Below are positions 1 to 58,839 of a DNA stretch of 64,000 bases, one piece after another. The stretch's first letter is position 1. Every line of letters starts with the position of its first letter. The DNA is from Balamuthia mandrillaris (lineage: Eukaryota). Where the stretch lies: contig JAVKOQ020000027.1 of NCBI GenBank assembly GCA_031835245.2, forward strand, positions 1-64,000, given 5' to 3'. The notes beneath the pieces were generated by a model. The model was given only the letters and a program-made list of their open reading frames with translations. It was not told where the DNA came from and ran no database searches. The position numbers were made by a program, and so were the translations under genes.

Positions 1-153
1 AACCCTACTCAATATCATAACTATAGTTGAAAGTTACCAAAATGCCACCCAAAACTAACCAACATCTTACCCAGTCCAAGTCATAAACATCACAAATATC
101 CCTCCCATCAAAAATGCTTCTATTTACTAACCTTAAGCAAAGGTGTAGGAAAA

Positions 154-1509
154 ATGCGGAAAAATAGGACTCTGCCACGCAAGAGCACTGAATTGATTGA
201 CAGTCAGGAGAGGGAACAGGTCCTACGTCGATGGGTGGATCTGGCCATGAAGGAACGTCTTAGACTGGGGACCCTAAACGGTAATCGTTCGTGGAAGCCC
301 GCTTTGCAAGCTGTGCAATAAGAGGCAAAGATCCCCGAGTGTTTTGTCAAAGGGGACAAGCTAAATCAGTTTCTGGAGGAAGCGTTCAAGTTGGCGGTGG
401 AAAAGTATGGGCACCTGAACACTACCACAGTCAAGATTCCTTCTCCCAGGGTGAACCAAAAGGAGGAGGACGACAGAGGGGCAGAGGATCAGTGTAACTC
501 GGTAGCGGATTCGCCCCGCCGAGAGGAAGGGACAAGTGTTGTGCCCAAGGGGAAGATTGATTCGGACTCAGTCAGTGCAGCCGGCGTTAAGGAGCGAACC
601 AATAGTCAAGTGGCGCTGCTGTTTGATTGTATTAGCCGTGTTTCTCACGAGTGTGGTAAGCTCTCCGAGGCAGGCGTACTCTCACTCGCAGTGATTGTAC
701 GATTCAGGGACCTGATTGAATCCCTCGACAAGGAGATCAATAATCTTATGGTGGAAAAAGGAAGTGCAAATAGTACCAAAGGCGGCCTTACTCTGGGTTC
801 CCAACGGTCTTACGCGGAGGTGGTCGGATCCGCTCCGCGGTGTGATATGATTACTGCGGAAAGGAATTTCCCTCCAACGGCAACTACGGTCAGCGCGCCA
901 AGCTTGGAATACTGGAAGGAAGAAATGGCAAAGGAACAAGGGATATGTTGGCAGGATAACTCCAACATATACAGGAGGACGTGGACCAAAGATACAGTAA
1001 CCGACCCGAACTATTGGTCTACAGTAAAACCAAAGTATGGCTTTGCCAGTCCCTACTCCAAGGTAGGGGCGGTGGAGGGCAGATCGATTGTGGTGAGCGG
1101 TAAGGACCTTAAGAAGGAAAAGGTAAGTGAGAGGATCTTCGAGCTGGGGCTCAAGCACGTCGGAGTGTGGAAAGTAGGAGAGAAGAATGGCACGCAGCAT
1201 TGGGGAGTTACTTTGGAGCCGGCCCAGGCTGCCGAAGACATTATTGCGGAAAGAGCCAGGCTGTATGCTTTTACCCGCTGGTGGGTGGGCAAAGCCCGAA
1301 TTGAAGAAGCCAAGAATGAAGGTAAACCGCTGTGGAAGCCTAAAGAGCAAAGAAAGATGGAGAAGAAGAAGGAAAAGGAGGAGAATGTTGGAACAGTGGC
1401 CTTGGACAGCTCTTTGGAACTCTCAAGCATCGCGCTGGCTGAGGAGGTGTATCATGGTGCTGCCAACTGGTCTGACATTGTGGAGGAGGAAGGAGAGGAG
1501 ACCCAATGA
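154..1509 (+). pseudogene. LINE ORF1 (RRM-like segment near the C-terminus), interrupted by in-frame TAA at 319-321
   Basis: ATG 154 ([14 protein letters not shown]...) is in frame with the 391..1509 ORF, with a single TAA at 319-321. IVVSGKDL...[16 protein letters not shown] resembles an RRM fold (inference). Confidence 0.8.
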
Positions 1510-4500
1510 CTTCAGTAGCGTTTGTCAACTCTAGGGGCTGGGGACAAGAGGAATTGGTCAGCTGTTGGGCTGACAGTAAGCAATTTGACATTATTGGAGT
1601 GTGCGAACATAGGAGGATGGTTGCCCCTCGATTGGAGGGGTATCGGTGGATGGGTGGAGGGGCTGCTCCAGGGAGGAGTGGCTATGGAAGGGGTGGCGCA
1701 GGTTTCTTTGTTCGAGAGGGCTTCAAGGGGAACATCAGAGAAAGGAAAGAGTGGCGAACACCCAACTCCACTTGGGTGGAACTGGCGGGACAGGGTTGCA
1801 TCTTTATAATCGGTATAGTGTATCTCCCTCCAGGAGGTACCGTGGACAACTTTAAGGTCACCTTGGCTGCGATTGAGAAAAGAATCCTGGACGTGGTCAA
1901 GGAAGGAAGACCCCTGATTATTGGAGGTGATTGGACCGCCAGGGTTGGAAAGGGATGGAATGGTAGAGGTGAATCTACTTACAACACGAGAGGAAAGGTG
2001 TTGGTGGAGGCTTTCAAAAGGCTGGCCCTCTCGTTGCCTCAGCTCGAAGAGGAAGCGCCAGTATTTACATGGAGAGCTGGAAAACGAAAGAGCATTGTGG
2101 ACTATGTGGTAGCATGGAGATGGACGGGCAAGGTAGTTGGTGACAGATGGCAAGCTTGGACCGATCATCGACCACTGGTAGTCGAGTTGAAGGCCCCAGC
2201 AGATAATTGTGGCGGGGTTTGGATGGAACGATGGAAGTGGAAGTCCTACTCGGAGGAAGATCGCAAGAGGAGGTGGAGGGAGTACAAACGCGGGTGCAAG
2301 CGTTTCTTCAAAGGAGAGGAATGGAAGGCCATGGTCAAGAAAACCCGGGAGGGAACAGCTACTGTTGAAGATCTTTGGAGCAAGTGGAAAAAAGGATTGT
2401 GGGATTGTGCAATGAGATGGTTTGGTAGAGAAAGGAGACTGATAGGAGCAACAACGAGCAGGGCAAGGAAGCCATGGTGGACAGCAGAGTTAACATCCTT
2501 GAACAAGCAGGTAGCGATAGCCCATGCTCAGTGGCTAAGAGAAGGAAAGAATGATGGAAAGGCCAGAGAGGAATTTGTGGAACTCAGGAAAAGGTTTGTG
2601 AAGTTGTGGAGAGCCAACAAATGGGACTGGATGAAGTGGAAAAGACAAGAGAACATCAAGGAAATGCAGAAATGGATCGGCAACATGTGGAGGATAGTGG
2701 CAAAGCGTAGAGCAGAGCCCAAAGCAGTTAGGGCGCACCACGGTAGCACGGCAGCCTTCAAGGAACATTGGGCAAAGCTGGGAAGGAAGGATTCTTCCAT
2801 TGGGAGCTTGCATCGAGAGGAAGCAGGTCCAGAAGGACTGCCTTGGTCTGGTAGTAACTGGCTTAAGAAGGAGAGTTTTAATCTTGCATGGAGGAAAAGA
2901 TTGAGGGTGGGCAAAGCAGCTGGGGTGGACAATATTGATGGGGAAATGATGAAGTATGGAGGCAAACATGTGCAAGATGCAACTTGGCCGCTGATCAAGG
3001 TCATTGAGAACCAAGGCATATTCCCCAAGGAGTGGAAACAGGGGGTGGTTATTCCCTTGCATAAGGCAGGAGATCCCCAGAATCCAGCAAACTATAGAGG
3101 TATTACTCTCCTATGCAATGCAGCCAAGGTGTTTGAAGGAGCTATCTTGGTACATTTGAACATACAAGCAAGAGAGCAAGGGTGGATAAGTAATTGCCAG
3201 GGTGGATTTAGAAAAGGAAGGGGAGTCATGGATCAGGTGTGGCGGTTGAAGAAATGCCTGATGAAGAGAAGCAAAGAACGTACCTATATTGCTCTGATGG
3301 ATATCAGCAAGGCATATGACATGCTTGACCATGACATACTGGCAAGGACATTACGCAAAAGAGGAGCAGAAGAGGCAGCAGTGGGTATCATTACAGAGTG
3401 GTACCATGGTATGACGAGTGTTATTCGCATGAATGGGCAGCTTTCAGAGGAATTTCTGGTGGAAAGAGGAGTTAAGCAAGGAGGAGTTTTGTCTCCATTC
3501 TTGTTCAATGTATACATTGATGTGGTGGCAAGAAAGCTACAAGCTGCAGAGGAGAAGGAAAGAGGAGATAAAGCAAGGAATGTTTGCTTGTTGTTTGCAG
3601 ATGACTTGGCAGTGGTGGCCAGCGACCCATTTGAGCTTCAGAGAAGATTGAATGTAGCAGTGGAGGCAGTGAATGCTCTGGGACTTCAGTTCAATGCAAA
3701 GAAATCAGTGGTGCTAGTACAAGGAAAGAAGGCTCATTTTCAAGAGTGGAGACTGAAGGGGGAGGCTGGGAAACGGGTGAAGGAGGCCAAGTACCTGGGA
3801 CTGTGGTTTGAAGAAAGTGGGGAATGGACAACTCATGCCAAGGAGAGGATCACCAAGGCCAAGCAAGCCCTCTACAGCCTTAGGCAGCGGGGAGCCAATG
3901 CCCAAGGCCTTGGTACACGCACTGCCCAGATTGCTGCAGAGGCTATTGTCAAGTCTACCTTGTCATATGGATTATGTATGACAGAGCTTTCCAAATCATG
4001 GTGGAAGAAGATCGAAGCAGTGTGGAATGAGACAGCAAGAAGTGTATTGCAAGTTCATCGAAGGACTGTGGCGGGGGTTTGTAGAGCAGAATTGGGCTGG
4101 TTGACCATCAAGGCCTGCTGTGAGTTGGAAAGACAAGCAGTAATTCATCATGCTGAGAGGCAAGATGGCCACTTTGAGCTACTTGAAGAGGTAAGCCAAG
4201 CAAGTGAAGAGGAAGGGGAGAAGAATGAAGGTGAGGGAGGTGACGGAACGACAGTTGTTGAAAAGAAAGCCATGAGGATGAGGGCCTTAACTCGAGTAGC
4301 CAAGATGGAGTATGCAGCTGAAGGAGAAAGAGGAACAAGAGCATGGCTATGGCATAACTTCTTGACAAATGGAAGATGTTTGGTTGGACAACAACGGAGC
4401 TTAGTGATTACCAACCCAAGGAAAGAACGTTTGATGAATGCTATTCGCTGTGGTGGCCTGCCTATTGGAAAAAAGTGGGGATCCATTCAGCAGTCTGAGG

Positions 4501-4811
4501 TGGATAGCAAGTGCCCTGCATGTGATGCTGAGGAAGAAACAGCAGAACACTTCCTGTTAAGGTGTCCTAACCTTTGGGAAGATCGCTTTAGAATCTGGAG
4601 TGTGGACAATGGAAGTGAAGAACAAGTCAGAAAGCTGATTATTGAAGACTGTACAACAAAGCTCATGTCAAGTGGAAAGAAATGTAACAGAGCTCAAGAG
4701 ATGGAACAATGTAAGCAAAGTTGTAAACGAGTCTGGAGATTATGGGCAGCAAGAGCAAGTTGGAAGCATGGAAGTTCTTCTGCATTTTATCAGTCTTTGG
4801 AAGTAATGTAA
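1506..4811 (+). CDS. LINE ORF2: APE endonuclease + reverse transcriptase + C-terminal CCHC zinc finger
   Basis: 1101 aa. APE motifs (VNSRG, GVCEH, IIGGDW, IVDY, TDHRP), RT motifs ([40 protein letters not shown]) and CPAC...EHFLLRC. Confidence 0.96.
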   Translation: MTSVAFVNSRGWGQEELVSCWADSKQFDIIGVCEHRRMVAPRLEGYRWMGGGAAPGRSGYGRGGAGFFVREGFKGNIRERKEWRTPNSTWVELAGQGCIFIIGIVYLPPGGTVDNFKVTLAAIEKRILDVVKEGRPLIIGGDWTARVGKGWNGRGESTYNTRGKVLVEAFKRLALSLPQLEEEAPVFTWRAGKRKSIVDYVVAWRWTGKVVGDRWQAWTDHRPLVVELKAPADNCGGVWMERWKWKSYSEEDRKRRWREYKRGCKRFFKGEEWKAMVKKTREGTATVEDLWSKWKKGLWDCAMRWFGRERRLIGATTSRARKPWWTAELTSLNKQVAIAHAQWLREGKNDGKAREEFVELRKRFVKLWRANKWDWMKWKRQENIKEMQKWIGNMWRIVAKRRAEPKAVRAHHGSTAAFKEHWAKLGRKDSSIGSLHREEAGPEGLPWSGSNWLKKESFNLAWRKRLRVGKAAGVDNIDGEMMKYGGKHVQDATWPLIKVIENQGIFPKEWKQGVVIPLHKAGDPQNPANYRGITLLCNAAKVFEGAILVHLNIQAREQGWISNCQGGFRKGRGVMDQVWRLKKCLMKRSKERTYIALMDISKAYDMLDHDILARTLRKRGAEEAAVGIITEWYHGMTSVIRMNGQLSEEFLVERGVKQGGVLSPFLFNVYIDVVARKLQAAEEKERGDKARNVCLLFADDLAVVASDPFELQRRLNVAVEAVNALGLQFNAKKSVVLVQGKKAHFQEWRLKGEAGKRVKEAKYLGLWFEESGEWTTHAKERITKAKQALYSLRQRGANAQGLGTRTAQIAAEAIVKSTLSYGLCMTELSKSWWKKIEAVWNETARSVLQVHRRTVAGVCRAELGWLTIKACCELERQAVIHHAERQDGHFELLEEVSQASEEEGEKNEGEGGDGTTVVEKKAMRMRALTRVAKMEYAAEGERGTRAWLWHNFLTNGRCLVGQQRSLVITNPRKERLMNAIRCGGLPIGKKWGSIQQSEVDSKCPACDAEEETAEHFLLRCPNLWEDRFRIWSVDNGSEEQVRKLIIEDCTTKLMSSGKKCNRAQEMEQCKQSCKRVWRLWAARASWKHGSSSAFYQSLEVM

Positions 4812-5858
4812 GCAAGGAAAAGAGGAAAAAGGAAAGGGAAAGAAAAGGATAGCTAGATGATACAAAGTTGGTCTGAAATCTCATTAAACACCTTTCACTT
4901 GTGAATTGAGTAACAATTGGGAAGGCATTGAGGATGAGGGAGTAAGAAAAGTAAGAGTACACTATGTATGTACAAGGCTTACTTTTTATGTATAGATTGG
5001 TGTTGCTCTCAGAGCAAATAAACTTTTTATTACTACTACTACCTACCCAGCACTTTCAAGTTTTCCACTTGTTTGATGTGAGAAAATACTGATAAACTCA
5101 GAATTTTGGAAAAACTTGATTATGCACAGTAATATCTATAATGCAAATAATTATTTTTATTTTTTTTCTAGTTGTGTAGGAAAAGTTCTTCTTGAGTTTT
5201 ACCTTTTTGACACTGGGCTCAAACTACTTGATAGTCCCTTGAAGAATGACTTAAGTAGGCAGACAGTCCCTTTTCTCTCCCTCTCTCTTTTTCTCTCTCT
5301 TATTCTTTCTTCTCCCTTGTCTTCCAGTCTTGAACATGGGTTCTGAGCCGGTTCTGTTTTTGGGTGGTAAGTTGAGAAAGAGGAAGAAAGAAGTGAAAAG
5401 AGCTGTGGGTGAAGGGAGAGAGGGAGGAGAGGAAGAAAGTGAGGGAGAGGAAAAGAGAAAGGAGAGAGGGAGAGAAATGAGACCTTCTTTCTTTCATTCT
5501 ATTAAAGGTCTTCTCCACACCCATCCCTGGGAGTCACTCTTTGGTTGACTGTCAGGCCAATAATCATGATACTACTCTCCAAAATGCCTGGACCACAAGG
5601 AAACAAAGGTGACAAGAAGGAAGAATATGTGTGTAATGCTAACTAAAAGAAGAAAGGAGATAACGGAATAAAAGGAGGAAGGCTGGTGATATGACAGCAG
5701 CAATTAATGCACATCATGGATGTCAATAGGAAGAAAGGAAGTACTCAACACTTTGTTTAGAGCAAATTGTTCCAGGGCTCTCTGGCAAGGGAGTGTTTGT
5801 GATGAAAGCAATGTTGAGTTTTAACCCATTTTCATTCAGAAATTGAACAAGCAAAAAA

Positions 5859-10982: not shown

Positions 10983-13900
10983 CTACTTGCCCCTGCCTCT
11001 TTTTCGTTGCGCAATCCTTCGTGTTTTGCTTGTGTGGGTGGGCTCAGGAGAGCTCTCTGATTCATGAGCTTCTTGTTCATATTTGTGTTCTTGCTCTTCA
11101 CTGCTGAGTTGTTGCTGCATCGTGCCCTTCTTCTGAGCGCAGTAAAAGTCAGGAAAAAGTAAAGCAGAATGGTCCGAGTGCAATACATTCAAGTACCTTT
11201 GTATTCTTGCTTTTAACTGTTTTTTTGGGCTTTTTGGGATGGGAACCTTCAATGTGAGCAATTGTAGTGGTAGAGGGAGTCACCTTTCGTTTCCTGTCAG
11301 AGGGTTAGCCAAGCTACTTCTGATGAGGCGAAGGGAAACCTACCGCTTGGCTACACGTCGACTGGCAGCTATTTTTCCCGTTTCCATTTCTTCCTTTGCT
11401 TCTTTCTCTTTTACGCCTTCCTCCTCCTTCTCTTTCTCGCTCTCCTCCTCTTCCTCTTCCTCCTCTTCCTCTTCCTCCTCTTCCTCCTCTTCCTCACTAC
11501 TGGAATGTTCTTTAAGTGATAGCCCACGTTTAGCCTTTCTGTCAACAGATGTTCGGCGCTGTGTAGGCTTATTTTTAGAAGGATCCAAATAGGTATCTTC
11601 CTCCATTTTGTTCTATTGTGGTTTGTTAAACACTTGTTTGCCCATGGTGTATGCGGAAGCCAGCTTTCTTACCTTTTTGGCCCTTTTGGTGCTAGCGATC
11701 TGTTTGGCAGCAGCTACCTAGATGTTTCCATTCTAAGGTAAAGAAATTTTGTAGGTGCAAGGAAGGGAAAGGGTTTAAGTACCGGTGGTGTCTTTCTCTT
11801 GGGATTTTCAGCTAAGGAAGTATCAGTGCTCTGAGATATGTATGAGGAGCAAAGACAAGAACGTTGTTGATCGTAACACAAAGAGCAACAAAATGGAGAG
11901 AGAGAGAGAGAGAGGGTTTTTCACCTTCGCAGGCGCACTTTCGTAAATAAGTCTGTGTCTAGCACCAGTTGGCAAGGAAAAGTCCGCAGGTAGATACTTC
12001 CGATTTTGGTAGGAAAAATGCGGAAAAATAGGACTCTGCCACGCAAGAGCACTGAATTGATTGACAGTCAGGAGAGGGAACAGGTCCTACGTCGATGGGT
12101 GGATCTGGCCATGAAGGAACGTCTTAGACTGGGGACCCTAAACGGTAATCGTTCGTGGAAGCCCGCTTTGCAAGCTGTGCAATAAGAGGCAAAGATCCCC
12201 GAGTGTTTTGTCAAAGGGGACAAGCTAAATCAGTTTCTGGAGGAAGCGTTCAAGTTGGCGGTGGAAAAGTATGGGCACCTGAACACTACCACAGTCAAGA
12301 TTCCTTCTCCCAGGGTGCACCAAAAGGAGGAGGACGACAGAGGGGCAGAGGATCAGTGTAACTCGGTAGCGGATTCGCCCCGCCGAGAGGAAGGGACAAG
12401 TGTTGTGCCCAAGGGGAAGATTGATTCGGACTCAGGCAGTGCAGACGGCGTTAAGGAGCGAACCAATAGTCAAGTGGCGCTGCTGTTTGATTGTATTAGC
12501 CGTGTTTCTCACGAGTGTGGTAAGCTCTCCGAGGCAGGCGTACTCTCACTCGCAGTGATTGTACGATTCAGGGACCTGATTGAATCCCTCGACAAGGAGA
12601 TCAATAATCTTATGGTGGAAAAGGAAGTGCAAATAGTACCAAAGGCGGCCTTACTCTGGGTTCCCAACGGTCTTACGCGGAGGTGGTCGGATCAGCTCCG
12701 CGGTGTGATATGATTACTGCGGAAAGGAATTTCCCTCCAACGGCAACTACGGTCAGCGCGCCAAGCTTGGAATACTGGAAGGAAGAAATGGCAAAGGAAC
12801 AAGGGATATGTTGGCAGGATAACTCCAACATATACAGGAGGACGTGGACCAAAGATACAGTAACCGACCCGAACTATTGGTCTACAGTAAAACCAAAGTA
12901 TGGCTTTGCCAGTCCCTACTCCAAGGTAGGGGCGGTGGAGGGCAGATCGATTGGGGTGAGCGGTAAGGACCTTAAGAAGGAAAAGGTAAGTGAGAGGATC
13001 TTCGAGCTGGGGCTCAAGCACGTCGGAGTGTGGAAAGTAGGAGAGAAGAATGGCACGCAGCATTGGGGAGTTACTTTGGAGACGGCCCAGGCTGCCGAAG
13101 ACATTATTGCGGAAAGAGCCAGGCTGTATGGTTTTACCCGCTGGTGGGTGGGCAAAGCCCGAATTGAAGAAGCCAAGAATGAAGGTAAACCGCTGTGGAA
13201 GCCTAAAGAGCAAAGAAAGATGGAGAAGAAGAAGGAAAAGGAGGAGAATGTTGGAACAGTGGCCTTGGACAGCTCTTTGGAACTCTCAAGCATCGCGCTG
13301 GCGGAGGAGGAGTATCATGGTGCTGCCAACTGGTCTGACATTGTGGAGGAGGAAGGAGAGGAGACCCAATGACTTCAGTAGCGTTTGTCAACTCTAGGGG
13401 CTGGGGACAAGAGGAATTGGTCAGCTGTTGGGCTGACAGTAAGCAATTTGACATTATTGGAGTGTGCGAACATAGGAGGATGGTTGCCCCTCGATTGGTG
13501 GGGTATCGGTGGATGGGTGGAGGGGCTGCTCCAGGGAGGAGTGGCTATGGAAGGGGTGGCGCAGGTTTCTTTGTTCGAGAGGGCTTCAAGGGGAACATCG
13601 GAGAAAGGAAAGAGTGGCGAACACCCAACTCCACTTGGGTGGAACTGGCGGGACAGGGTTGCATCTTTATAATCGGTATAGTGTATCTCCCTCCAGGAGG
13701 TACCGTGGACAACTTTAAGGTCACCTTGGCTGCGATTGAGAAAAGAATCCTGGACGTGGTCAAGGAAGGAAGACCCCTGATTATTGGAGGGGATTGGAAC
13801 GCCAGGGTTGGAAAGGGATGGAATGGTAGAGGTGAATCTACTTACAACACGAGAGGAAAGGTGTTGGTGGAGGCTTTCAAAAGGCTGGCCCTCTCGTTGC

Positions 13901-16900
13901 CTCAGCTCGAAGAGGAAGCGCCAGTATTTACATGGAGAGCTGGAAAACGAAAGAGCATTGTGGACTATGTGGTAGCATGGAGATGGACGGGCAAGGTAGT
14001 TGGGGACAGATGGCAAGCTTGGACCGATCATCGACCACTGGTAGTCGAGTTGAAGGACCCAGCAGATAATTGTGGCGGGGTTTGGATGGAACGATGGAAG
14101 TGGAAGTCCTACTCGGAGGAAGATCGCAAGAGGAGGTGGAGGGAGTACAAACGCGGGTGCAAGCGTTTCTTCAAAGGAGAGGAATGGAAGGCCATGGTCA
14201 AGAAAACACGGGAGGGAACAGCTACTGTTGAAGATCTTTGGAGCAAGTGGAAAAAAGGATGGTGGGATTGTGCAATGAGATGGTTTGGTAGAGAAAGGAG
14301 ACTGATAGGAGCAACAACGAGCAGGGCAAGGAAGCCATGGTGGACAGCAGAGTTAACATCCTTGAACAAGCAGGTAGTGATAGCCCATGCTCAGTGGCTA
14401 AGAGAAGGAAAGAATGATGGAAAGGCCAGAGAGGAATTTGTGGAACTCAGGAAAAGGTTTGTGAAGTTGTGGAGCGCCAACAAATGGGACTGGATGAAGT
14501 GGAAAAGACAAGAGAACATCAAGGAAATGCAGAAATGGATCGGCAACATGTGGAGGATAGTGGCAAAGCGTAGAGCAGAGCCCAAAGCAGTTAGGGAGCA
14601 CCACGGTAGCACGGCAGCCTTCAAGGAACATTGGGCAAAGCTGGGAAGGAAGGATTCTTCCATTGGGAGCTTGCATCGAGAGGAAGCAGGTCCAGAAGGA
14701 CTGCCGTGGTCTGGTAGTAACTGGCTTAAGAAGGAGAGTTTTAATCTTGCATGGAGGAAAAGATTGAGGGTGGGCAAAGCAGCTGGGGTGGACAATATTG
14801 ATGGGGAAATGATGAAGTATGGAGGCAAACATGTGCAAGATGCAACTTGGCCGCTGATCAAGGTCATTGAGAACCAAGGCATATTCCCCAAGGAGTGGAA
14901 ACAGGGGGTGGTTATTCCCTTGCATAAGGCAGGAGATCCCCAGAATCCAGCAAACTATAGAGGTATTACTCTCCTATGCAATGCAGCCAAGGTGTTTGAA
15001 GGAGCTATCTTGGTACAATTTAACATACAAGCAAGAGAGCAAGGGTGGATAAGTAATTGCCAGGGTGGATTTAGAAAAGGAAGGGGAGTCATGGATCAGG
15101 TGTGGCGGTTGAAGAAATGCCTGATGAAGAGAAGCAAAGAACGTACCTATATTGCTCTGATGGATATCAGCAAGGCATATGACATGCTTGACCATGACAT
15201 ACTGGCAAGGACATTACGCAAAAGAGGAGCAGAAGAGGCAGCAGTGGGTATCATTACAGAGTGGTACCATGGTATGACGAGTGTTATTCGCATGAATGGG
15301 CAGCTTTCAGAGGAATTTCTGGGGGAAAGAGGAGTTAAGCAAGGAGGAGTTTTGTCTCCATTCTTGTTCAATGTATACATTGATGTGGTGGCAAGAAAGC
15401 TACAAGCTGCAGAGGAGAAGGAAAGAGGAGATAAAGCAAGGAATGTTTGCTTGTTGTTTGCAGATGACTTGGCAGTGGTGGCCAGCGACCCATTTGAGCT
15501 TCAGAGAAGATTGAATGTAGCAGTGGAGGCAGTGAATGCTCTGGGACTTCAGTTCAATGCAAAGAAATCAGTGGTGCTAGTACAAGGAAAGAAGGCTCAT
15601 TTTCAAGAGTGGAGACTGAAGGGGGAGGCTGTGAAACGGGTGAAGGAGGCCAAGTACCTGGGACTGTGGTTTGAAGAAAGTGGGGAATGGACAACTCATG
15701 CCAAGGAGAGGATCACCAAGGCCAAGCAAGCCCTCTACAGCCTTAGGCAGCGGGGAGCCATTGCCCAAGGCCTTGGTACACGCACTGCCCAGATTGCTGC
15801 AGAGGCTATTGTCAAGTCTACCTTGTCATATGGATTATGTATGACAGAGCTTTCCAAATCATGGTGGAAGAAGATCGAAGCAGTGTGGAATGAGACAGCA
15901 AGAAGTGTATTGCAAGTTCATCGAAGGCCTGTGGCGGGGGTTTGTAGAGCAGAATTGGGCTGGTTGACCATCAAGGCCTACTGTGAGTTGGAAAGACAAG
16001 CAGTAATTCATCATGCTGAGAGGCAAGATGGCCACTTTGAGCTACTTGAAGAGGTAAGCCAAGCAAGTGAAGAGGAAGGGGAGAAGAATGAAGGTGAGGG
16101 AGGTGCCGGAACGACAGTTGTTGAAAAGAAAGCCAAGAGGATGAGGGCCTTAACTCGAGTAGCCAAGATGGAGTATGCAGCTGAAGGAGAAAGAGGAACA
16201 AGAGCATGGCTATGGCATAACTTCTTGACAAATGGAAGATGTTTGGTTGGACAACAACGGTGCTTAGTGATTACCAACCCAAGGAAAGAACGTTTGATGA
16301 ATGCTATTCGCTGTGGTGGACTGCCTATTGGAAAAAAGTGGGGATCCATTCAGCAGTCTGAGGTGGATAGCAAGTGCCCTGCATGTGATGCTGAGGAAGA
16401 AACAGCAGAACACTTCCTGTTAAGGTGTCCTACCCTTTGGGAAGATCGCTTTAGAATCTGGAGTGTGGACAATGGAAGTGAAGAACAAGTCAGAAAGCTG
16501 ATTATTGAAGACTGTACAACAAAGCTCCTGTCAAGTGGAAAGAAATGTAACAGAGCTCAAGAGATGGAACAATGTAAGCAAAGTTGTAAACGAGTGTGGA
16601 GATTATGGGCAGCAAGAGCAAGTTGGAAGCATGGAAGTTCTTCTGCATTTTATCAGTCTTTGGAAGTAATGTAAGCAAGGAAAAGAGGAAAAAGGAAAGG
16701 GAAAGAAAAGGATAGCTAGATGATACAAAGTTGGTCTGAAATCTCATTCAACACCTTTCACTTGTGAATTGAGTAACAATTGGGAAGGCATTGAGGATGA
16801 GGGAGTAAGAAAAGTAAGAGTACACTATGTATGTACAAGGCTTACTTTTTATGTATAGATTGGTGTTGCTCTCAGAGCAAATAAACTTTTTATTACTACT

Positions 16901-41935: not shown

Positions 41936-42095
41936 AATATAAATTTAAGCACGGCCATACCTCTCTGCCCCCTCCCGCGCTGTTCCGCAGAGCAGACACT
42001 CCGTGCCACACCCCTCCTCCTATGCTACCCATTGCGAAGCCGCTCCCAACGTCGTGCACGATCCGCCAAGGGCATGGTTCTCTCATGGCATCCAT
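41273..42095 (-). CDS. TIM17: Mitochondrial import translocase TIM17 (3 exons)
   Basis: REPCPWRIVHDVGSGFAMGSIGGGVWH, SFAVWGGLFSSCDC, EDAWNSIMSGAITGG and GGFILAAIEG. Confidence 0.93.
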
Positions 42096-42368
42096 GGTGG
42101 TATTTGATGGTCTTGGTAAGCAAACACTGACAGGCAGAAGGTTAGGCGGAGAAGATCTGCGCCCTGGCTGGAGCGAGCAGTGAAAAATAAATTTAAATCC
42201 TTCCTTCTCGTTCTTCTTTTCTTTTTTCCGAGGGCCAGAATGGATGAGGGGTGGATGAGGGGGATAGGCAGAAAGCCTTCTTCTCAGAATTGATCGGTTT
42301 TTTAGATCAGCGGGTGAGTGATCACTTTCGGGACGACACAAGAGAAAAATGAGAGAGAAATCCAAGTG

Positions 42369-42480
42369 GATAAGAGATAGAGGAATAAGGGAGAGGATAA
42401 GAGATAGAGGATAAGGGATAGAGGATAAGGGATAGAGGATAAGGGAGAGGATAAGGGAGAGGATAAGAGATAGAGGATAC
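42369..42480 (+). repeat. Tandem ~14-bp (GATAGAGGATAAGG-like) minisatellite
   Basis: Directly visible, upstream of TIM17. Confidence 0.85.
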
Positions 42481-42667
42481 GGGAAATCCCGATGACATTC
42501 GTCTTTTGGGCCAATGAGCATTTTTCCCGCCAAAACAACCCTTCCTTCTCCCACGTCTTCGAAGGCAAAGTGGTGGGTTGGGGTGTGGGGTGGGGTGAAT
42601 GGAATGGATGCTCATGCTGCTGCCGCCAATAAACTTTTGGTACTCGTCATTCGCCTTGACACTTTTT

Positions 42668-43052
42668 TTTTTGGTCAGGAACTTCTCCCTCATCCTTCTG
42701 CCAGAGTTCAGGAGCCAGCAGATGGTGCGGCGAGGCCACCGACGCATTGGCTCACGAACGGCCAGAGCCATGCTCACCTGGTCCCACTATCGCTTCAGGC
42801 AGAGGCTCCTCAACAAGGCCAAGCAATTTCCGTCCTGTACGGTCTGCCTCTGCGATGAGGAATACACCTCCAAGACCTGCGGCAAGTGCGGCCAAGTCCA
42901 CCACCAGTTGGGGGGAAACAAGACCTTTCGGTGCCCAACCCGAGTGTGGCTACCAGGCCGATCGAGATGCCAACGCCGCCCGAAACATCTTGATCCGCTT
43001 TTTTACGTTACAAGCACTTACCACCTCCTCCTCCTCTGTGAGGGGGCGGTAG
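42668..43052 (+). pseudogene. Fanzor2 / IS607-TnpB-like nuclease, 5'-truncated C-terminal fragment (RuvC-II, zinc finger, RuvC-III) with one frameshift
   Basis: FLVRNFSLILLPEFRSQQMVRRGHRRIGSRTARAMLTWSHYRFRQRLLNKA...DEEYTSKTCGKCG...LGGNKTFRCP, frameshift at ~42935, then ECGYQADRDANAARNIL. Confidence 0.9.
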
Positions 43053-43113
43053 GCGGTAAGGTTGCTTTGGTGCCGGCACCGTTGCTTATAGCGAGTCGTA
43101 AGACAAGCCGTGA
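43012..43113 (+). ncRNA. Candidate Fanzor omegaRNA scaffold
   Basis: Stacked hairpins overlap and follow the Fanzor stop: a long stem at 43012-43067, GGTGCCGGCACC at 43069-43080, TTGCT-TAT-AGCGA at 43082-43094 and GTC-GTAA-GAC at 43095-43104. The position matches known TnpB/Fanzor omegaRNAs. Confidence 0.55.
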
Positions 43114-44800
43114 TTACACCCCAAACTTGAACCTGCTGCGGTACGCCTCGTACCATGTGCTTGAGGTTGAGGTTGTGGTGAGGGGAGCGGCAGGGATGTC
43201 ACGGGCCTGGCGTGCTTGGCCCAGTGCCTGGAATGAAAGGTAATCTGCGCAGTCAACTTCACCCACGAACCGAAACTTGAGCGGGTGACCCAGCAAGGAC
43301 CTGACGAAGGTAGGATTGTAGTAGGAAAGCCCGATTTTGCCTGCGGAGCTAAGCCTTGCTTTGAGAACCGCTCCGCGTGTTTTGTTCTCCCCGAGCTTGA
43401 ACGAGGCACCAACGGTGAGCCGTGGGATAGTCTCCCAATGATATTCCATTGGCGCATGTTGGTTTGACTCGTCTTCATCGTTTTCGTGCAGTGGCCCTTG
43501 GTTGGGTTTGTGATCCTCAGCCTGGTAACTTTGCTTGGCCCAAGTTACTTCTGCTGCCAAGGAGAACCTGTCGGTGATACTCTCGTAATATCGTGCCCCC
43601 ACAGAGGCGCAGGACCCATACCCTTGACTAAACAGGGTTAGTCGGTAGGTGCGATATCCATCCACATCACTGCCATTATCAACGGTTGCAGTACTCCTTT
43701 GGATGTGTGCTGCCAACGACAGGGCCAGCTTTTCTTGCTCAACGCTTCCTTCCTCCAAATCAGAAGCCAGTTGGCATCCCGCGACTAGTTGGTAGTAAGA
43801 GGTCTTACCACTGTTGCTCTGATCCATCTTCTCCTTCTCCTGCTGGATGGAGGACCCGTTGTTGCCGGCAAGGCGGTGGTTCCACAAGGCAAGGCAAAGT
43901 TTAGCCCTTGCGGTTTGTTGGGGCAGTCGCAGATGGGCGTAGAGGTGATACCAGTTGGTGGCGTGAGTTAGCATTACTTTGGAGGCCCACTTGTTCTTTT
44001 TTTGGTGGCGTCTGAGCCAATGTCCTCGCACACCCAGCTTCACACCCTCGATGTCCTTATTGCCGAGAGTAATGTCGATATCATCATGCTGTAGCTCGTA
44101 GGCCAACATGCCCACTTCCTTCTTTTCAGTCGGCAGAAGATAACCTGTGGCGTGGAGCTCACCCTCAAGCCCTTCCACTCCAAGAAAGTCTTCCGCCATG
44201 ACGGCGCCACTCAGCTTGTCCCATCCATTAGGTTCAAGACCAGCCTTGTTCACGAAGGTGAGTCCGCTAGACCCGTGTACATACTTTAAGCCAAGGGACG
44301 CAGCATCGAAGGTGTCAACCCCACAAACCTTGCCTATGCTCCCTGCTTTCCTATTCCGCCTGCCCACGAAAAACAGCCCCTCTCGGCGTTGCTCGCAAGT
44401 GAAGGACTTCAAAGTCAAACCACCCACCCACCCAGTAAGTTCAGTAGTTTGAATGGAACGAACGAGAGGAGGTGCCTACCATTCCCTTCACCTTTGGCAA
44501 TGGCAAGCGTACATAGCTATTTAGACCTGAACAAGACCAGTTGGACCGAAACAACAAATCTAAAACAATTATGGCGGTCAGAAAGTAGTAGCCGTAGTCG
44601 TAGTAGTAGGGGGGCGCAAAGAGATCAAAAAAAATAAAATAAACGAAGAGAAAGAGAAAAAGAAAAAGAAAAAGAAAAAGAAAAAGAAAAGAGAAGAGAA
44701 GAAAAGAATAGCAAGTACCTTCACAGCTGTCGGAAAGTTCCTCAAAAGCGGGCACTTCTTCCCAGGGATCATCCTCTGTGGCAGCGTAGTTGGTAAACAT
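43114..44800 (-). CDS. Divergent eukaryotic porin (VDAC/Tom40 superfamily) with long loop insertions (3 exons)
   Basis: N-terminal VPAFEELSDSCE-DLL resembles the VDAC helix (PPxFxDLGKxxxDLL). C-terminal LTVGASFKLG...VLKARLSSAGKIGLSY...FRFVGEVD...FKFGV resembles the last VDAC strands. Confidence 0.6.
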
Positions 44801-44913
44801 TACAGCTTTTCTGTTCTTTTTCTTGTTGTTGGTTTTATTTTGTTTATTATTTGCTTAACAAATTTTCGAAACAAAAAAATGAGCAGACAAAATAACCACA
44901 GGGAGGCCATTGG

Positions 44914-45119
44914 AAGGTCTTGTTTCCCCCCAACTGGTGGTGGACTTGGCTGCACTTCCCGCAGGTCTTGGAGGTGTATGCTTCATCGCAGAGGCAGACT
45001 GTACAGGACGGAAATTGCTTGGCCTAGTTGAGGAGCCTCTGCCTGAAATGATAGTGGACCAGGTGAGCATGGCTCTGGCCAACGTGGCTGTGGTCTTGCC
45101 GCACCATCTGTTGGCTCCT
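44914..45119 (-). pseudogene. Second, decayed Fanzor2 fragment in inverted orientation
   Basis: The reverse complement aligns to ~42710-42928 (GGCCAGAGCCATGCTCACCTGGTCC...CAGTTGGGGGGAAACAAGACCTT) with indels and a stop. Confidence 0.88.
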
Positions 45120-45297
45120 CGGACCAAGACCTCCTCTGCATGAGATCCAGCTAGGCGTAGCTTACTGATCCGTTTGAAGTCCTCTTTGTCCCATTCAAGG
45201 AATGCCACTGAAGGAGATAAAAGATCAAGTTCCTTAACAACGGCAATGGAGAGGACAATAGCCTGTTGGAAACTCCTCAGTGCTACCGCAGTGACGC

Positions 45298-45423
45298 CGT
45301 TGGCTGGGCCATTACTACCTCTGTGTCACAGCATTGAAGCTCATAGGTGAGAGCCAAGCCCGTGAGCACCAAAGGAGAGAAGCAGGCATCATCACCTTGG
45401 ACCCAGGAGTTCACACTTTCATG
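45298..45423 (+). pseudogene. Fanzor2 fragment carrying the WED end and RuvC-I motif
   Basis: Translates RWLGHYYLCVTALKLIGESQAREHQRREAGIITLDPGVHTFM, matching the G-x-YYLC...ENQ...IALDPGVRTF pattern. Confidence 0.8.
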
Positions 45424-45819
45424 TTTATAGTGGAACTCGCCATGGAAATTGTCTTTGCCCTTATAGGAAAGGAAAAAAAATGATTTCTTTGATAATGTAT
45501 CATTGTTTTGGCACTTGAAAGTAATGTAAAAAAAGTCTTGATTTCAAATTTCAATAATATTATTAATCTTTATATATTATTTGCTAGTCTACATTCTAAT
45601 TGTTTAGAATTAATCACAAAGCCAATGAACACTTTATTTGATTTGATGATATAGCATTTGAGTTTGATTATCAGTTAAGGCCATTATTTTTGATAAAAAC
45701 TTAAATTTGATATGTTATAATAAGGTTAAGTAAAGAATAATGCCTTTCCAATTGTTTACTATCTAGTAGTCATCACTGTGACATGAAGATATCTTCATCA
45801 TCCATTCTTCAAGCACACT

Positions 45820-46972
45820 ACCCTCAATCTCTTTGGCCCCTTTCCAAAGGATGCTAAAGACTTACCCTTATCTTCATTGACACAGCCACTCATTTCACCT
45901 TCCTTCACTAGATAACTCTAGTCATACCATGGCCCATGCTCCTTGGTAACTATGGTTTTCCTAAGATTGTTCAATTTATGGTCCTGAAGTTATTGACAAG
46001 ATCAGGGCCATCCTATGTCACATTGTTAGCTTTGACCATCATTTCATCTTGGTATATCATTCTCATGCCAACAGTGCTCCTGAGAGCCATGTTAAGCTAA
46101 GAGTACATTACTCAAAATGATATATGGATAAACTTGGGCAATGAGTCAACCTTTCTTTTTGTAGAACAGTTTGTGGTCTGCACTTGTTCTTAGGCTCGTT
46201 GGTGAGTTGGAAGGTGAATATCCATTGCTCAAAGCATACTCTCTCCTTGTACTTGTGGAACCATATCTTTTTGTAATGCTTCTCAAAGAAGGACATCACC
46301 TTTTTTTTAATTTTAAGATACAAAGAAGAAATGAATGTTACTACTACTACCAAACAAGTCTTCTCCCTTCAAGCTTTTCTTTGGGCCTGTGACTCCTTGA
46401 CAATTATTCTAAAGTCTATTCAGATTCTGTTTCTTCTTTTGAGTACTATTCCCAAATTGACTAGCTCCATTCCTTAGTTGTGCCTGCTATTGGGAAGCTA
46501 TAAATGATTACAACAACAAGCTAGCCTTTTTCTACAATCGCCTTCAGCACTCTGCTGAGTTTGCTCCAGGTGATACTTTGCAACTCTAGTGCTAAGACTA
46601 TGACAGTTCCTAAGTACCCAAGTCCCTTTGTTGTCAAGAAAAGGAATCGTACTGATGCTTATGTTTGTTCTTCAAGACATCCCTAGTTCTATTATTCCTA
46701 ACCAGTGCCTCCTTCTCTCCTCAAGAGAGCTAGCCTCTCCTCTGCTCTAGTGGAACATCTTCCTGTCTTTGATAATCACTATAAAGTGGAAAAGGTCTTG
46801 GACCATGATGACCACTCAACAATTGCCATTATATTGTTTGTTTAAAAGGCTATGATGCAGATGAAGACTCCTGGGTCATTGCCTTTGACTTTGATTACCT
46901 CAATCATCAAGTATTGGAAAAGCATACAAATACTTCACAAAGGAGGGAGGAAGTGATGTTGGCAACTGCCAA
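45820..46972 (+). mobile_element. Decayed Ty3/Gypsy integrase-chromodomain, polypurine tract and start of 3' LTR
   Basis: LFGPFP..IFIDTAT and YGFPKIVQ remnants. YKVEKVLDH...YIVCLKGYDADEDSWV at ~46780-46880, PPT AAAGGAGGGAGGAAG at 46939-46953, then TGTTGGCAACTGCCAA from 46957. Confidence 0.75.
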
Positions 46973-53969: not shown

Positions 53970-56900
53970 GGTAGTAATAAGAAGTTTATTTGCTCTGAGA
54001 GCAACACCAATCTATACATAAAAAGTAAGCATCGTACATACATAGTGTACTCTTACTTTTCTTACTCCCTCATCCTCAATGCCTTCCCAATTGTTACTCA
54101 AATTCACAAGTGAAAGGTGTTGAATGAGATTTCAGACTAACTTTGTATCATCTAGCTTTCCCTTTCCTTTCTTCTCTTTTCCTTGCTATTACATTACTTC
54201 CAAAGATTGATAGAATGCAGAAGAACTTCCATGCTTCCAACTTGCTCTTGCTGCCCATAATCACCAGACTCGTTTACAACTTTGCTACATTGTTCCATCT
54301 CTTGAGCTCTGTTGCATTTCTTTCCACTTGACAGGAGCTTTGTTATACAGTCTTCAATAATCAGCTTTCTGACTTGTTCTTCACTTCCATTGTCCACACT
54401 CCAGATTCTAAAGCGATCTTCTCAAAGGTTAGGACACCTTAACAGGAAGTATTCCGCTGTTTTTTCCTCAGCATCACATGCAGGGCACTTGCTATCCTCC
54501 TCAGACTGCTGAATGGCTCCCCACTTTTTCCCAATAGGCAGTCCACCACAACGAATAGCATTCATCAAACATTCTTTCCTTGGGTTGGTAATCACTAAGC
54601 TCTGTTGTTGTCCAACCAAACATCTTCCATTTGTCAAGAAGTTATGCCATAGCCATGCTCTTGTTCCTTTTTCTCCTTCAGCTGCATACTCCATCTTGGC
54701 TACTCGAGTTAAGGCCCTCATCCTCTTGGCTTTCTTTTCAACAACACTCGTCCTGTCACCTCCCTCACCTTCATTCTTCTCCCCTTCCTCTTCACTTGCT
54801 TGGCTTACCTCTTCAAGTAGCTCAAAGTGGCCATCTTGCCTCTCAGCATGATGGTACTGCTTGTCTTTCAACTCACAGTGAGCCTTGATGGTCAACCAGC
54901 CCAATTCTGCTCTACAAACCCCCGCCACAGTCCTTCGATGAACTTGCAATACACTTCTTGCTGTCTCATTCCACACTGCTTCGATCTTCTTCCACCATGA
55001 TTTGGAAAGCTCTGTCATACATAATCCATATGACAAGGTAGACTTGACAATAGCCTCTGCAGCAATCTGGGCAGTGCGTGTACCAAGGCCTTTGGCAATG
55101 GCTCCCCGCTGCCTAAGGCTGTAGAGGGCTTGCTTGGCCTTGGTGATCCTCTCCTTGGCATGAGTTGTCCATTCCCCACTTTCTTCAAACCACAGTCCCA
55201 GGTACTTGGCCTCCTTCACACGTTTCACAGCCTCCCCCTTCAGACTCCACTCTTGAAAATGAGCCTTCTTTCCTTGTACTAGCACCACTGATTTCTTTGC
55301 ATTGAATTGAAGTCCCAGAGCATTCACTGCCTTCACTGCTACATTCAACCTTCTCTGAAGCTCAAACGGATTGCTGGCCACCACTGCCAAGTCATCTGCA
55401 AACAACAAGCAAACATTCCTTGCTTTATCTCCTCTTTCCTTCTCCTCTGCCACTTGTAGCTTTCTTGCCACCACATCAATGTATACATTGAACAAGAATG
55501 GAGACAAAACTCCTCCTTGCTTAACTCCTCTTTCCACCAGAAATTCCTCTGAGAGCTGCCCATTCATGTGAATAACACTCGTCATACCACGGTACCACTC
55601 TGTAATGATACCCACAGCTGCCTCTTCTGCTCCTCTTTTGCATAATGTCCTTGCCAGTATGTCATGGTCGAGCATGTCATATGCCTTGCTGATATCCAAC
55701 AGAGCAATATAGGTGTGTTCTTTGCTTCTCTTCATTTCTTCAACCGCCACACCTGATCCATGACTCCCCTTCCTTTTCTAAATCCACCCTGGCAATTACT
55801 TATCCACCCTTGCTCTCTTGCTTGTATGTTCAATTGTACCAAGATAGCTCCTTCAAACACCTTGGCTGCATTGCATAGGAGAGTAATACCTCTATAGTTT
55901 GCTGGATTCTGGGGATCTCCTGCCTTATGCAAGGGAATAACCACCCCCTGTTTCCACTCCTTGGGGAATATGCCTTGGTTCTCAATGACCTTGATCAGCG
56001 TCCAAGTTGCATCTTGCACATGTTTGCCTCCATACTTCATCATTTCCCCATCAATATTGTCCACCCCAGCTGCTTTGCCCACCCTCAATCTTTTCCTCCA
56101 TGCAAGATTAAAACTCTCCTTCTTAAGCCAGTTACTACCAGACCAAGGCAGTCCTTCTGGACCTGCTTCCTCTCGATGCAAGCTCCCAATGGAAGAATCC
56201 TTCCTTCCCAGCTTTGCCCAATGTTCCTTGAAGGCTGCCGTGCTACCGTGGTGCTCCCTAACTGCTTTGGGCTCTGCTCTACGCTTTGCCACTATCCTCC
56301 ACATGTTGCCGATCCATTTCTGCATTTCCTTGATGTTCTCTTGTCTTTTCCACTTCATCCAGTCCCATTTGTTGGCTCTCCACAACTTCACAAACCTTTT
56401 CCTGAGTTCCACAAATTCCTCTCTGGCCTTTCCATCATTCTTTCCTTCTCTTAGCCACTGAGCATGGGCTATCACTACCTGCTTGTTCAAGGATGTTAAC
56501 TCTGCTGTCCACCATGGCTTCCTTGCCCTGCTCGTTGTTGCTCCTATCAGTCTCCTTTCTCTACCAAACCATCTCATTGCACAATCCCACAATCCTTTTT
56601 TCCACTTGCTCCAAAGATCTTCAACAGTAGCTGTTCCCTCCCGTGTTTTCTTGACCATGGCCTTCCATTCCTCTCCTTTGAAGAAACGCTTGCACCCGCG
56701 TTTGTACTCCCTCCACCTCCTCTTGCGATCTTCCTCCGAGTAGGACTTCCACTTCCATCGTTCCATCCAAACCCCGCCACAATTATCTGCTGGGTCCTTC
56801 AACTCGACTACCAGTGGGCGATGATCGGTCCAAGCTTGCCATCTGTCACCAACTACCTTGCCCGTCCATCTCCATGCTACCACATAGTCCACAATGCTCT

Positions 56901-58839
56901 TTCGTTTTCCAGCTCTCCATGTAAATACTGGCGCTTCCTCTTCGAGCTGAGGCAACGAGAGGGCCAGCCTTTTGAAAGACTCCACCAACACCTTTCCTCT
57001 CGCGTTGTAAGTAGATTCACCTCTACCATTCCATCCCTTTCCAACCCTGGCGTTCCAATCTCCTCCAATAATCAGGGGTCTTCCTTCCTTGACCACGTCC
57101 AGGATTCTTTTCTCAATCGCAGCCAAGGTGACCTTAAAGTCGTCCACGGTACCTCCTGGAGGGAGATACACTATACTGATTATAAAGATGCAACTCTGTC
57201 CCGCCAGTTCCACCCAAGTGGAGTTAGGCGTTCGCCACTCTTTCCTTTCTCTGATGTTCCCCTTGAAGCCCTCTCGAACAAAGAAACCTGCGCCACCCCT
57301 TCCATAGCCACTCCTCCCTGGAGCAGCCCCTCCACCCATCCACCGATACCCCTCCAAGCTAGGGGCAACCATCCTCCTATGTTCGCACACTCCAATAATG
57401 TCAAATTGCTTACTGTCAGCCCAACAGCTGACCAATTCCTCTTGTCCCCAGCCCCTAGAGTTGACAAACGCTACTGAAGTCATTGGGTCTCCTCTCCTTC
57501 CTCCTCCACAATGTCAGACCAGTTGGCAGCACCATGATACTCCTCCTCAGCCAGCGCGATGCTTGAGAGATCCAAAGAGCTGTCCAAGGCCACTGTTCCA
57601 ACATTCTCCTCCTTTTCCTTCTTCTTCTCCATCTTTCTTTGCTCTTTAGGCTTCCACAGCGGTTTACCTTCATTCTTGGCTTCTTCAATTCGGGCTTTGC
57701 CCACCCACCAGCGGGTAAAACCATACAGCCTGGCTCTTTCCGCAATAATGTCTTCGGCAGCCTGGGCCGTCTCCAAAGTAACTCCCCAATGCTGCGTGCC
57801 ATTCTTCTCTCCTACTTTCCACACTCCGACGTGCTTGAGCCCCAGCTCGAAGATCCTCTCACTTACCTTTTCCTTCTTAAGGTCCTTACCGCTCACCACA
57901 ATCGATCTGCCCTCCACCGCCCCTACCTTGGAGTAGGGACTGGCAAAGCCATACTTTGGTTTTACTGTAGACCAATAGTTCGGGTCGGTTACTGTATCTT
58001 TGGTCCACGTCCTCCTGTATATGTTGGAGTTATCCTGCCAACATATCCCTTGTTCCTTTGCCATTTATTCCTTCCAGTATTCCAAGCTTGGCGCGCTGAC
58101 CGTAGTTGCCGTTGGAGGGAAATTCCTTTCCGCAGTAATCATATCACACCGCGGAGCTGATCCGACCACCTCCGCGTAAGACCGTTGGGAACCCAGAGTA
58201 AGGCCGCCTTTGGTACTATTTGCACTTCCTTTTTCCACCATAAGATTATTGATCTCCTTGTCGAGGGATTCAATCAGGTCCCTGAATCGTACAATCACTG
58301 CGAGTGAGAGTACGCCTGCCTCGGAGAGCTTACCACACTCGTGAGAAACACGGCTAATACAATCAAACAGCAGCGCCACTTGACTATTGGTTCGCTCCTT
58401 AACGCCGTCTGCACTGACTGAGTCCGAATCAATCTTCCCCTTGGGCACAACACTTGTCCCTTCCTCTCGGCGGGGCGAATCCGCTACCGAGTTACACTGA
58501 TCCTCTGCCCCTCTGTCGTCCTCCTCCTTTTGGTTCACCCTGGGAGAAGGAATCTTGACTGTGGTAGTGTTCAGGTGCCCATACTTTTGCACCGCCAACT
58601 TGAACGCTTCCTCCAGAAACTGATTTAGCTTGTCCCCTTTGACAAAAACAGGATCTTTGCCTCTTTTGCACAGCTTGCAAGCGGGCTTCCACGAACGATT
58701 ACCGTTTAGGGTCCCCAGTCTAAGACGTTCCTTCATGGCCAGATCCACCCATCGACGTAGGACCTGTTCCCTCTCCTGACTGTCAATCAATTCAGTGCTC
58801 TTGCGTGGCAGAGTCCTATTTTTCCGCATTTTTCCCCCT
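53970..58839 (-). mobile_element. Full-length LINE copy 3, disabled, with 13-bp TSD
   Basis: CTTACTTGTATAT at 53957-53969 and 58840-58852. ORF1 (58829->57480) has TAA at 58065. ORF2 (from 57483) has a frameshift at ~55735 and a stop at 54422. Confidence 0.95.

Follow-up and report, generated by a model that had tools for sequence, protein, structure and literature searches.

The window, a 64,000-nt stretch of the Balamuthia mandrillaris contig JAVKOQ020000027.1 read on its forward strand, contains a Fanzor coding remnant, a block of hairpins that overlaps the end of this remnant (43012–43116), and a convergent porin-like gene on the minus strand. The question raised by this locus is whether the hairpins constitute the omegaRNA of a Fanzor element and, if so, whether this copy can still supply a guide. 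Sequence checks confirmed that the hairpins described in the sequence-only reading lie where it had placed them. The first, a long imperfect hairpin (Stem A), pairs AAGCA (43012–43016) with TGCTT (43063–43067), CTTACC (43017–43022) with GGTAAG (43055–43060), and CCTCCTC (43030–43036) with GAGGGGG (43040–43046) around a TGT loop, and encloses the Fanzor stop codon TAG at 43050–43052. It is followed by a palindrome (43069–43080), a TTGCT/AGCGA stem (43082–43086 and 43090–43094), and a GTC-GTAA-GAC hairpin (43095–43104). On the minus strand, the porin-like gene ends with a stop codon at 43114–43116, again as described.

The hairpins belong to a copy of a multicopy Fanzor2 element on the plus strand (42494–43116, with an uncertain left boundary) that is both internally deleted and clipped at its right end. 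Other copies are represented across this span by reads and contigs, which exit the window at both ends. The data on other copies came from eight sequencing runs (X1, X2, X5, X11, X12, X15, X21, and X22), two of which, X21 and X22, are RNA; the DNA evidence consists of contigs throughout, and contig assembly can drop alleles. The Fanzor gene model starts with an exon-like part on the plus strand (42514–42642) that matches residues 1–42 of P0123 at 86%. From residue 42, the tblastn match jumps to about residues 512–549 across a deletion junction at 42668–42672, which has removed the coding DNA for WED, REC, and RuvC-I, including the DPG motif, and joined the first 42 codons to the last ≈125 at position 42671. 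Reads and contigs of other copies enter the window at this position from upstream Fanzor coding sequence (10 and 17 RNA reads, and three contigs). The C-terminal coding remnant (42668–43052, plus strand) comprises the shifted RuvC glutamate, the zinc finger, and the RuvC-III aspartate, matches PF07282 in two frames, and is 98% identical to P0124 over 149 codons. The glutamate is present, and the aspartate motif is out of frame; two letters are missing near 42935, causing a frameshift. Two extra letters were found at 42935 in 9 of 10 reads in X21, and the frame is kept in these and in 8/19 plus 2/16 in X22. With the internal deletion at 42671 and this frameshift, there is no complete Fanzor ORF in the window copy. 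An 830-nt contig from X15 (contig 1) has the same internal deletion, is complete at the right end, and differs in its left flank, a hint that a second locus carries the deleted form; this contig has low depth and may be chimeric. Near the left end of the window copy, at 42500–42560, are CCAAT and TTTTCCCGCC words that are common to many unrelated contigs. The latter we take to be E2F-like, and the element may be using a host promoter motif here.

A protein search returned 209 matches, the best of which were “Transposase [Balamuthia mandrillaris]”, and two clusters hold 11 NCBI gene models of the element in B. mandrillaris, on contigs that all differ in length. Eight of the 11 models have the DPG motif at RuvC-I, and in eight the RuvC-II glutamate is shifted C-terminally and precedes the zinc finger; it aligns with the same region of the mimivirus Fanzor2 structure, 9b0l. 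The RuvC-III aspartate is in frame in two models, and all three catalytic motifs are in frame in one (P0126), for which 9b0l was also the best solved-structure match (E = 1.1e-17). The three models that were scanned for domains all matched PF07282 (zinc finger and RuvC-III aspartate) and PF12323 (TnpB-like HTH), with no match to a resolvase or transposase domain in these three. At the N-terminus of P0002 and P0126 there is a weak match to a C2H2 zinc finger (E = 0.015–0.07, below the cut-off), at the position of a MerR-like transposase helix in a relative. Full-length copies are transcribed, as seen from the RNA reads entering at 42671, and many keep the frame at 42935. The RNA libraries are 150-nt mRNA-seq and apparently unstranded, and are therefore unable to show an omegaRNA; no sites with massed molecule starts or ends were listed. 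The amoeba has a Fanzor2 family that is young, multicopy, and transcribed, and this family was not found in the literature searched: the searches returned no Balamuthia Fanzor or TnpB, and Balamuthia is absent from the supplements of PMC10530073 and PMC10432273 that were examined, although the bioRxiv supplements may list it.

The other copies also define the right end of the element. Among the loose ends listed, they extend 12–18 nt past 43116 in seven of the eight runs and then diverge. The tip that they have in common beyond 43116, GGCACGCCGGAG, was found in X21, X22, X2, X15, X1, X11, and X12, in some cases with small changes; the loose ends listed for X5 were only variants that end before the shared tip. 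The tip has CCGG at letters 7–10 and AG at letters 11–12, with GG following CCGG in X15. At least four different continuations follow the tip among the loose ends listed, one of which is the commonest. Many copies have four to six further letters in common past CCGG and AG, and the deepest contigs are unbranched beyond this point for four (X11) and six (X12) letters. No copy of the missing tip exists elsewhere in the window (a single chance-level match was obtained across the searches with the tip and with the flank of the other allele, described below). A sharp stop in conservation had been predicted near 43110, and the coverage by other copies does drop at 43116 in four runs; however, since the sister copies continue 12–18 nt further, this drop reflects a break in the window copy and not the end of the element. 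The right end is thus not at 43110–43115 as had been proposed. The window copy is clipped short of the family end, and the porin sequence that follows is therefore not a natural guide: the flank does not follow the right end of the element. The proposed guide (43115–43133, plus strand), which is antisense to the porin-like coding sequence, has no second site in the window within three mismatches. The suggestion that the RNA was better preserved than the protein was not borne out either. The surviving coding sequence (42671–42789) and the RNA block (43024–43116) are both identical to high-depth contigs from other copies, and each has suffered a loss, the gene of its middle and the RNA of its 3′ tip.

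The reading that we favor, with a probability of about 0.8, is that the hairpins form the omegaRNA scaffold of a Fanzor2 (IS607-type TnpB) element present in multiple copies, clipped at its tip at this locus and probably a non-functional remnant without a natural guide. In intact copies, a read-through RNA would fold Stem A and then a second hairpin, Stem B, the CCGG loop of which would pair with the CCGG just before the right end, and the flank past this end would serve as guide for a putative nuclease made from the full-length copies. At the window locus, a deletion would have taken the tip of the element together with the seven C-terminal codons of the convergent porin-like gene, probably by end joining at one shared letter.

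The junction itself is real and polymorphic. The break point is at 43114–43116, where what remains of the element ends in TTA, letters that on the minus strand supply a new stop codon to the porin-like gene, with one shared letter at 43116. A 1,515-nt contig from X5 (contig 32) bridges 43075–43400 with no differences, including 42 letters on the element side, and the junction therefore exists outside this assembly; no second porin contig was seen in X5. In two other studies, X1 contig 8 and X12 contig 22 exit the window before 43116 into other DNA, of which there is no copy elsewhere in the window, and the porin-like gene in this allele, read by hand, has seven more codons. No read of the RNA runs X21 and X22 crossed the junction, but with a coverage of the porin-like gene of 0–4 this does not count against it. 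X2, as filtered, had no coverage outside the element and has no bearing on the junction. The porin-like reading frame (43114–44427, minus strand; VDAC/Tom40/Mdm10 superfamily) is seven codons short at its C-terminus. It matches PF01459 with E = 6.6e-6, below the curated cut-off, and its top Atlas match is Mdm10 (0.95, with low recognition). No homolog was found at E = 0.001, and a single-sequence structure model had a pLDDT of 30.9 and was unusable. We tentatively identify the gene as a mitochondrial barrel of the VDAC/Tom40/Mdm10 type. The C-terminal β-signal of mitochondrial β-barrel proteins is described as PoHyGhyxHyxHy (PMC3045335). In the window allele, this signal ends after position 4, at the stop codon made of element letters, and the X1/X12 allele supplies positions 5–8, of which 6 is Leu and 8 is Trp (by hand).

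The polymorphic junction could also be viewed as a scar left when Fanzor homing was aborted: the nuclease would have cut an empty allele, the element would have been copied into it, and the copying would have stalled in the hairpin-rich end, followed by joining to resected porin DNA. The right end and the adjacent host DNA were lost together, with one shared letter at the junction, and the same block is rearranged in other copies: the C-terminus of P0121 corresponds to the hairpin block read on the minus strand (43005–43075), implying an inversion in that copy, and contigs from X5 and X15 have an inverted right-end word after 43032. The region 43005–43075 looks like a rearrangement hotspot. 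However, an ordinary later deletion across the hairpin gives the same picture, and we consider the homing scar unlikely. It would be similarly improbable that the junction as a whole is a footprint of Fanzor2 activity in a native nuclear genome, where aborted homing cut short the guide RNA of the element and deprived a host mitochondrial barrel gene of its import signal, in an isolate with the shortened allele only, from a family that is still transcribed and has a CCGG pseudoknot unseen in the relatives examined.

The favored reading, a clipped scaffold, assigns a function to the missing tip, and related elements provide a basis for this prediction. A set of 159 related loci (80 metagenomic and 79 viral) was collected, 95 of which have the terminal protein motif. 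There were 64 non-redundant loci with a 140-nt tail, and 32 of these have a small Stem B hairpin, chosen without viewing the 3′ end. An exact complement of the locus's own loop word plus [CA]G was found downstream in 25 of the 32 tails, compared to 55 of 768 cross-pairings, by a rule that was drawn up after viewing the tails; eight different loop words were represented. An earlier, narrower rule with three loop words matched 16 of 76 tails, compared to 0–2 in 30 shuffles, and gave no match in the window. The sibling pairs L004/L006 and L005/L017 diverge 0–1 nt after the pairing word; a third pair was ambiguous, and a fourth proved to be the same locus. When 22 of these 25 relatives (L042, L057, and L137 were left out) were aligned with the window, 93% of the pseudoknot cells were paired, a count biased towards structure, as the partner word determined where the segments end, and four of the six pairs were changed on both sides. 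The geometry agrees with that described for ApmFz2, in which the pseudoknot uses positions −4 to 0 and G(−192) pairs with C(−2) and C(−191) with G(−3) (PMC11832414).

The tail of the window copy has one Stem B candidate, the palindrome at 43069–43080 (plus strand) noted in the sequence-only reading, which unguided MAFFT placed in register with Stem B of the 22 relatives. Its loop word, CCGG (43073–43076), would form the 5′ strand of the predicted pseudoknot. There is no partner for this word downstream in the window, and it is the tip of the other Balamuthia copies, with CCGG followed by AG, that is complementary to this loop. CCGG is not among the eight loop words of the relatives, in which the corresponding column pair is always A-U or U-A, and the Balamuthia pairing consequently rests on complementarity and position. 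Covariation was found for the pseudoknot in the relatives, but within Balamuthia no compensatory change was seen at those pairs, and we infer the loop-to-end pairing there as a prediction from the sequence. Two other pairings that were considered fit the family layout less well, namely a pseudoknot end at TAGG/TAAG-type words (43049, 43057, 43089, and 43098) and a long-range pairing of 43020–43028 with the G-rich tip. CCGG is also self-complementary, which in principle would allow loop-to-loop pairing between two RNAs.

In the ISXfa1 TnpB, a single pseudoknot mismatch reportedly reduced activity to <1e-4, with partial rescue (10.1101/2023.08.09.552727). Since the predicted pseudoknot strand was lost with the tip, the window RNA is probably a dead scaffold that has lost its guide function, and not a trans-acting ghost; loading of a Fanzor in trans, as had been suggested, appears unlikely with the predicted partner absent. 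When the clipped copy was folded over 43012–43135, the loop paired with GCCG at 43107–43110 in a shifted register of four pairs, which might partly substitute for the missing strand. On this basis, the clipped copy would still make a working omegaRNA, with GCCG as substitute strand, the porin sequence as guide, and a Fanzor from elsewhere. That the predicted fold pairs the loop with 43107–43112, that full-length copies are transcribed, and that ghost omegaRNAs of SpuFz1 are described as working in trans (PMC10432273) would all agree with such an RNA. However, the substitute is out of register, loses a C-G pair that is near-invariant in the relatives (21/22), and lacks the following [CA]G, and the sister copies have the longer end. 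The SpuFz1 ghosts are also described as retaining their ends, and the pseudoknot is reported to be present in Fanzor2 and absent in Fanzor1 (PMC11832414). We therefore consider a working clipped RNA very unlikely.

Whether the block is structured at all was judged by folding. Stem A (43012–43067, plus strand), which spans the stop codon and is part of the likely scaffold, had a folding energy of −31.5 kcal/mol and a z-score of −4.66 (0/200 shuffles), with its ends chosen after the stem had been seen. It was the most stable of the 15,986 56-nt windows on the plus strand of the window, ranked by raw stability without correction for G+C, and a hairpin was seen by eye at the same place in the relatives. 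The (CCT)n run in its 5′ arm (43023–43036) varies in repeat number among copies, and one variant has insertions on both arms. The claim of a structured block held for this long stem, but the three small hairpins together (43068–43116) folded no better than chance (z = −0.26, 69/200 shuffles), and 43000–43140 folded as a whole gave a z-score of only −1.39. The two hairpins at 43082–43104 (plus strand), which also fold at chance, are variable among copies, being changed or missing in variants: some copies have A43100C, and a variant in X5 and X11 is without the third hairpin. The GNRA loop was accordingly rejected as a conserved feature. By eye, one variant in X5 and X11 appears to have a G-C to C-G swap in the tetraloop stem and an added pair in a terminal hairpin. 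The 5′ arm of a predicted terminal hairpin (43107–43112, plus strand), recognized by eye from the loose ends of other copies, would be orphaned in the window, with its 3′ arm in the missing tip. There was no Rfam match near the gathering score among 10 weak matches in 42000–46000, and a 29-nt piece of the block had no matches in the viral contigs. Least credible is the notion that the hairpins are passive DNA-level end structures or a microsatellite-derived fold-back, or that the junction is an assembly error, since, despite the length-variable (CCT)n run, the ability of Stem A to fold on the minus strand as well, and the small hairpins without significance, the position and layout match the family scaffold and an independent contig bridges the junction without differences. 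The sequence-only reading is upheld to this extent: the block is the structured 3′ end, conserved among copies, of a multicopy Fanzor2 element, and it is likely the omegaRNA scaffold.

Descriptions of Fanzor2 omegaRNAs, of the pseudoknot in these RNAs, and of ghost loci are already in print (PMC11832414; 10.1101/2023.08.09.552727; PMC10432273; PMC10530073). The best solved-structure match for the full-length Balamuthia protein is ApmFz2, or ApmFNuc, of Acanthamoeba polyphaga mimivirus (PDB 9b0l; PMC11832414, PMC10530073). Both have the DPG motif, the shifted glutamate, and the zinc finger, and in the Balamuthia family, too, an RNA is predicted to overlap the gene end and its 5′ loop to pair with the last letters before the guide. 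Unlike ApmFz2, the Balamuthia family is a nuclear amoeba element with a probably shorter scaffold of about 120 nt from Stem A to the end, compared to 205, a self-complementary pairing word, a weak N-terminal C2H2-finger signal, and no transposase in the three models scanned, and its window copy is without the 3′ pseudoknot strand. The reRNA of the IS607 TnpB ISXfa1 (10.1101/2023.08.09.552727) is described as having the same three-stem layout and a loop-to-end pseudoknot that is required in ISXfa1, and 98 of the 159 related loci have a serine-recombinase-like motif, identified by a loose regex without a chance control. In contrast to ISXfa1, the Balamuthia element is eukaryotic, has a probable intron after the first exon, and is apparently non-autonomous. 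Ghost loci of Fanzors in Spizellomyces punctatus and other hosts (PMC10432273) have, like the window copy, an internal deletion and a preserved 3′ RNA region. In the published ghosts, both ends are described as kept and the RNAs as functional, whereas the window copy has lost the tip of its right end. X15 contig 1 suggests that a comparable deleted form with its right end whole exists as well.

The window copy is probably inert, and the proposed porin-targeting guide should therefore be dropped. More generally, the loop-to-end rule offers a simple predictor of the right end and guide start in such elements. The break is polymorphic and shortens a gene that likely encodes a mitochondrial barrel, an unusual host-gene truncation. 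The role of Fanzors in their native genomes is described as still open (PMC10432273).

Further mobile-element sequences are present in the window. A second, scrambled Fanzor remnant without the 3′ RNA region lies on both strands (44904–45119, minus; 45196–45423, plus), with 87.6% identity over 218 nt and additional tblastn pieces, so that two Fanzor remnants flank the porin-like gene. A LINE-like element is present in three 4.9-kb copies that are 97.7–99.2% alike (145–5042, 12009–16905, and 53971–58835), and a 1,111-codon frame at 13339–16671 has endonuclease and reverse transcriptase domains.
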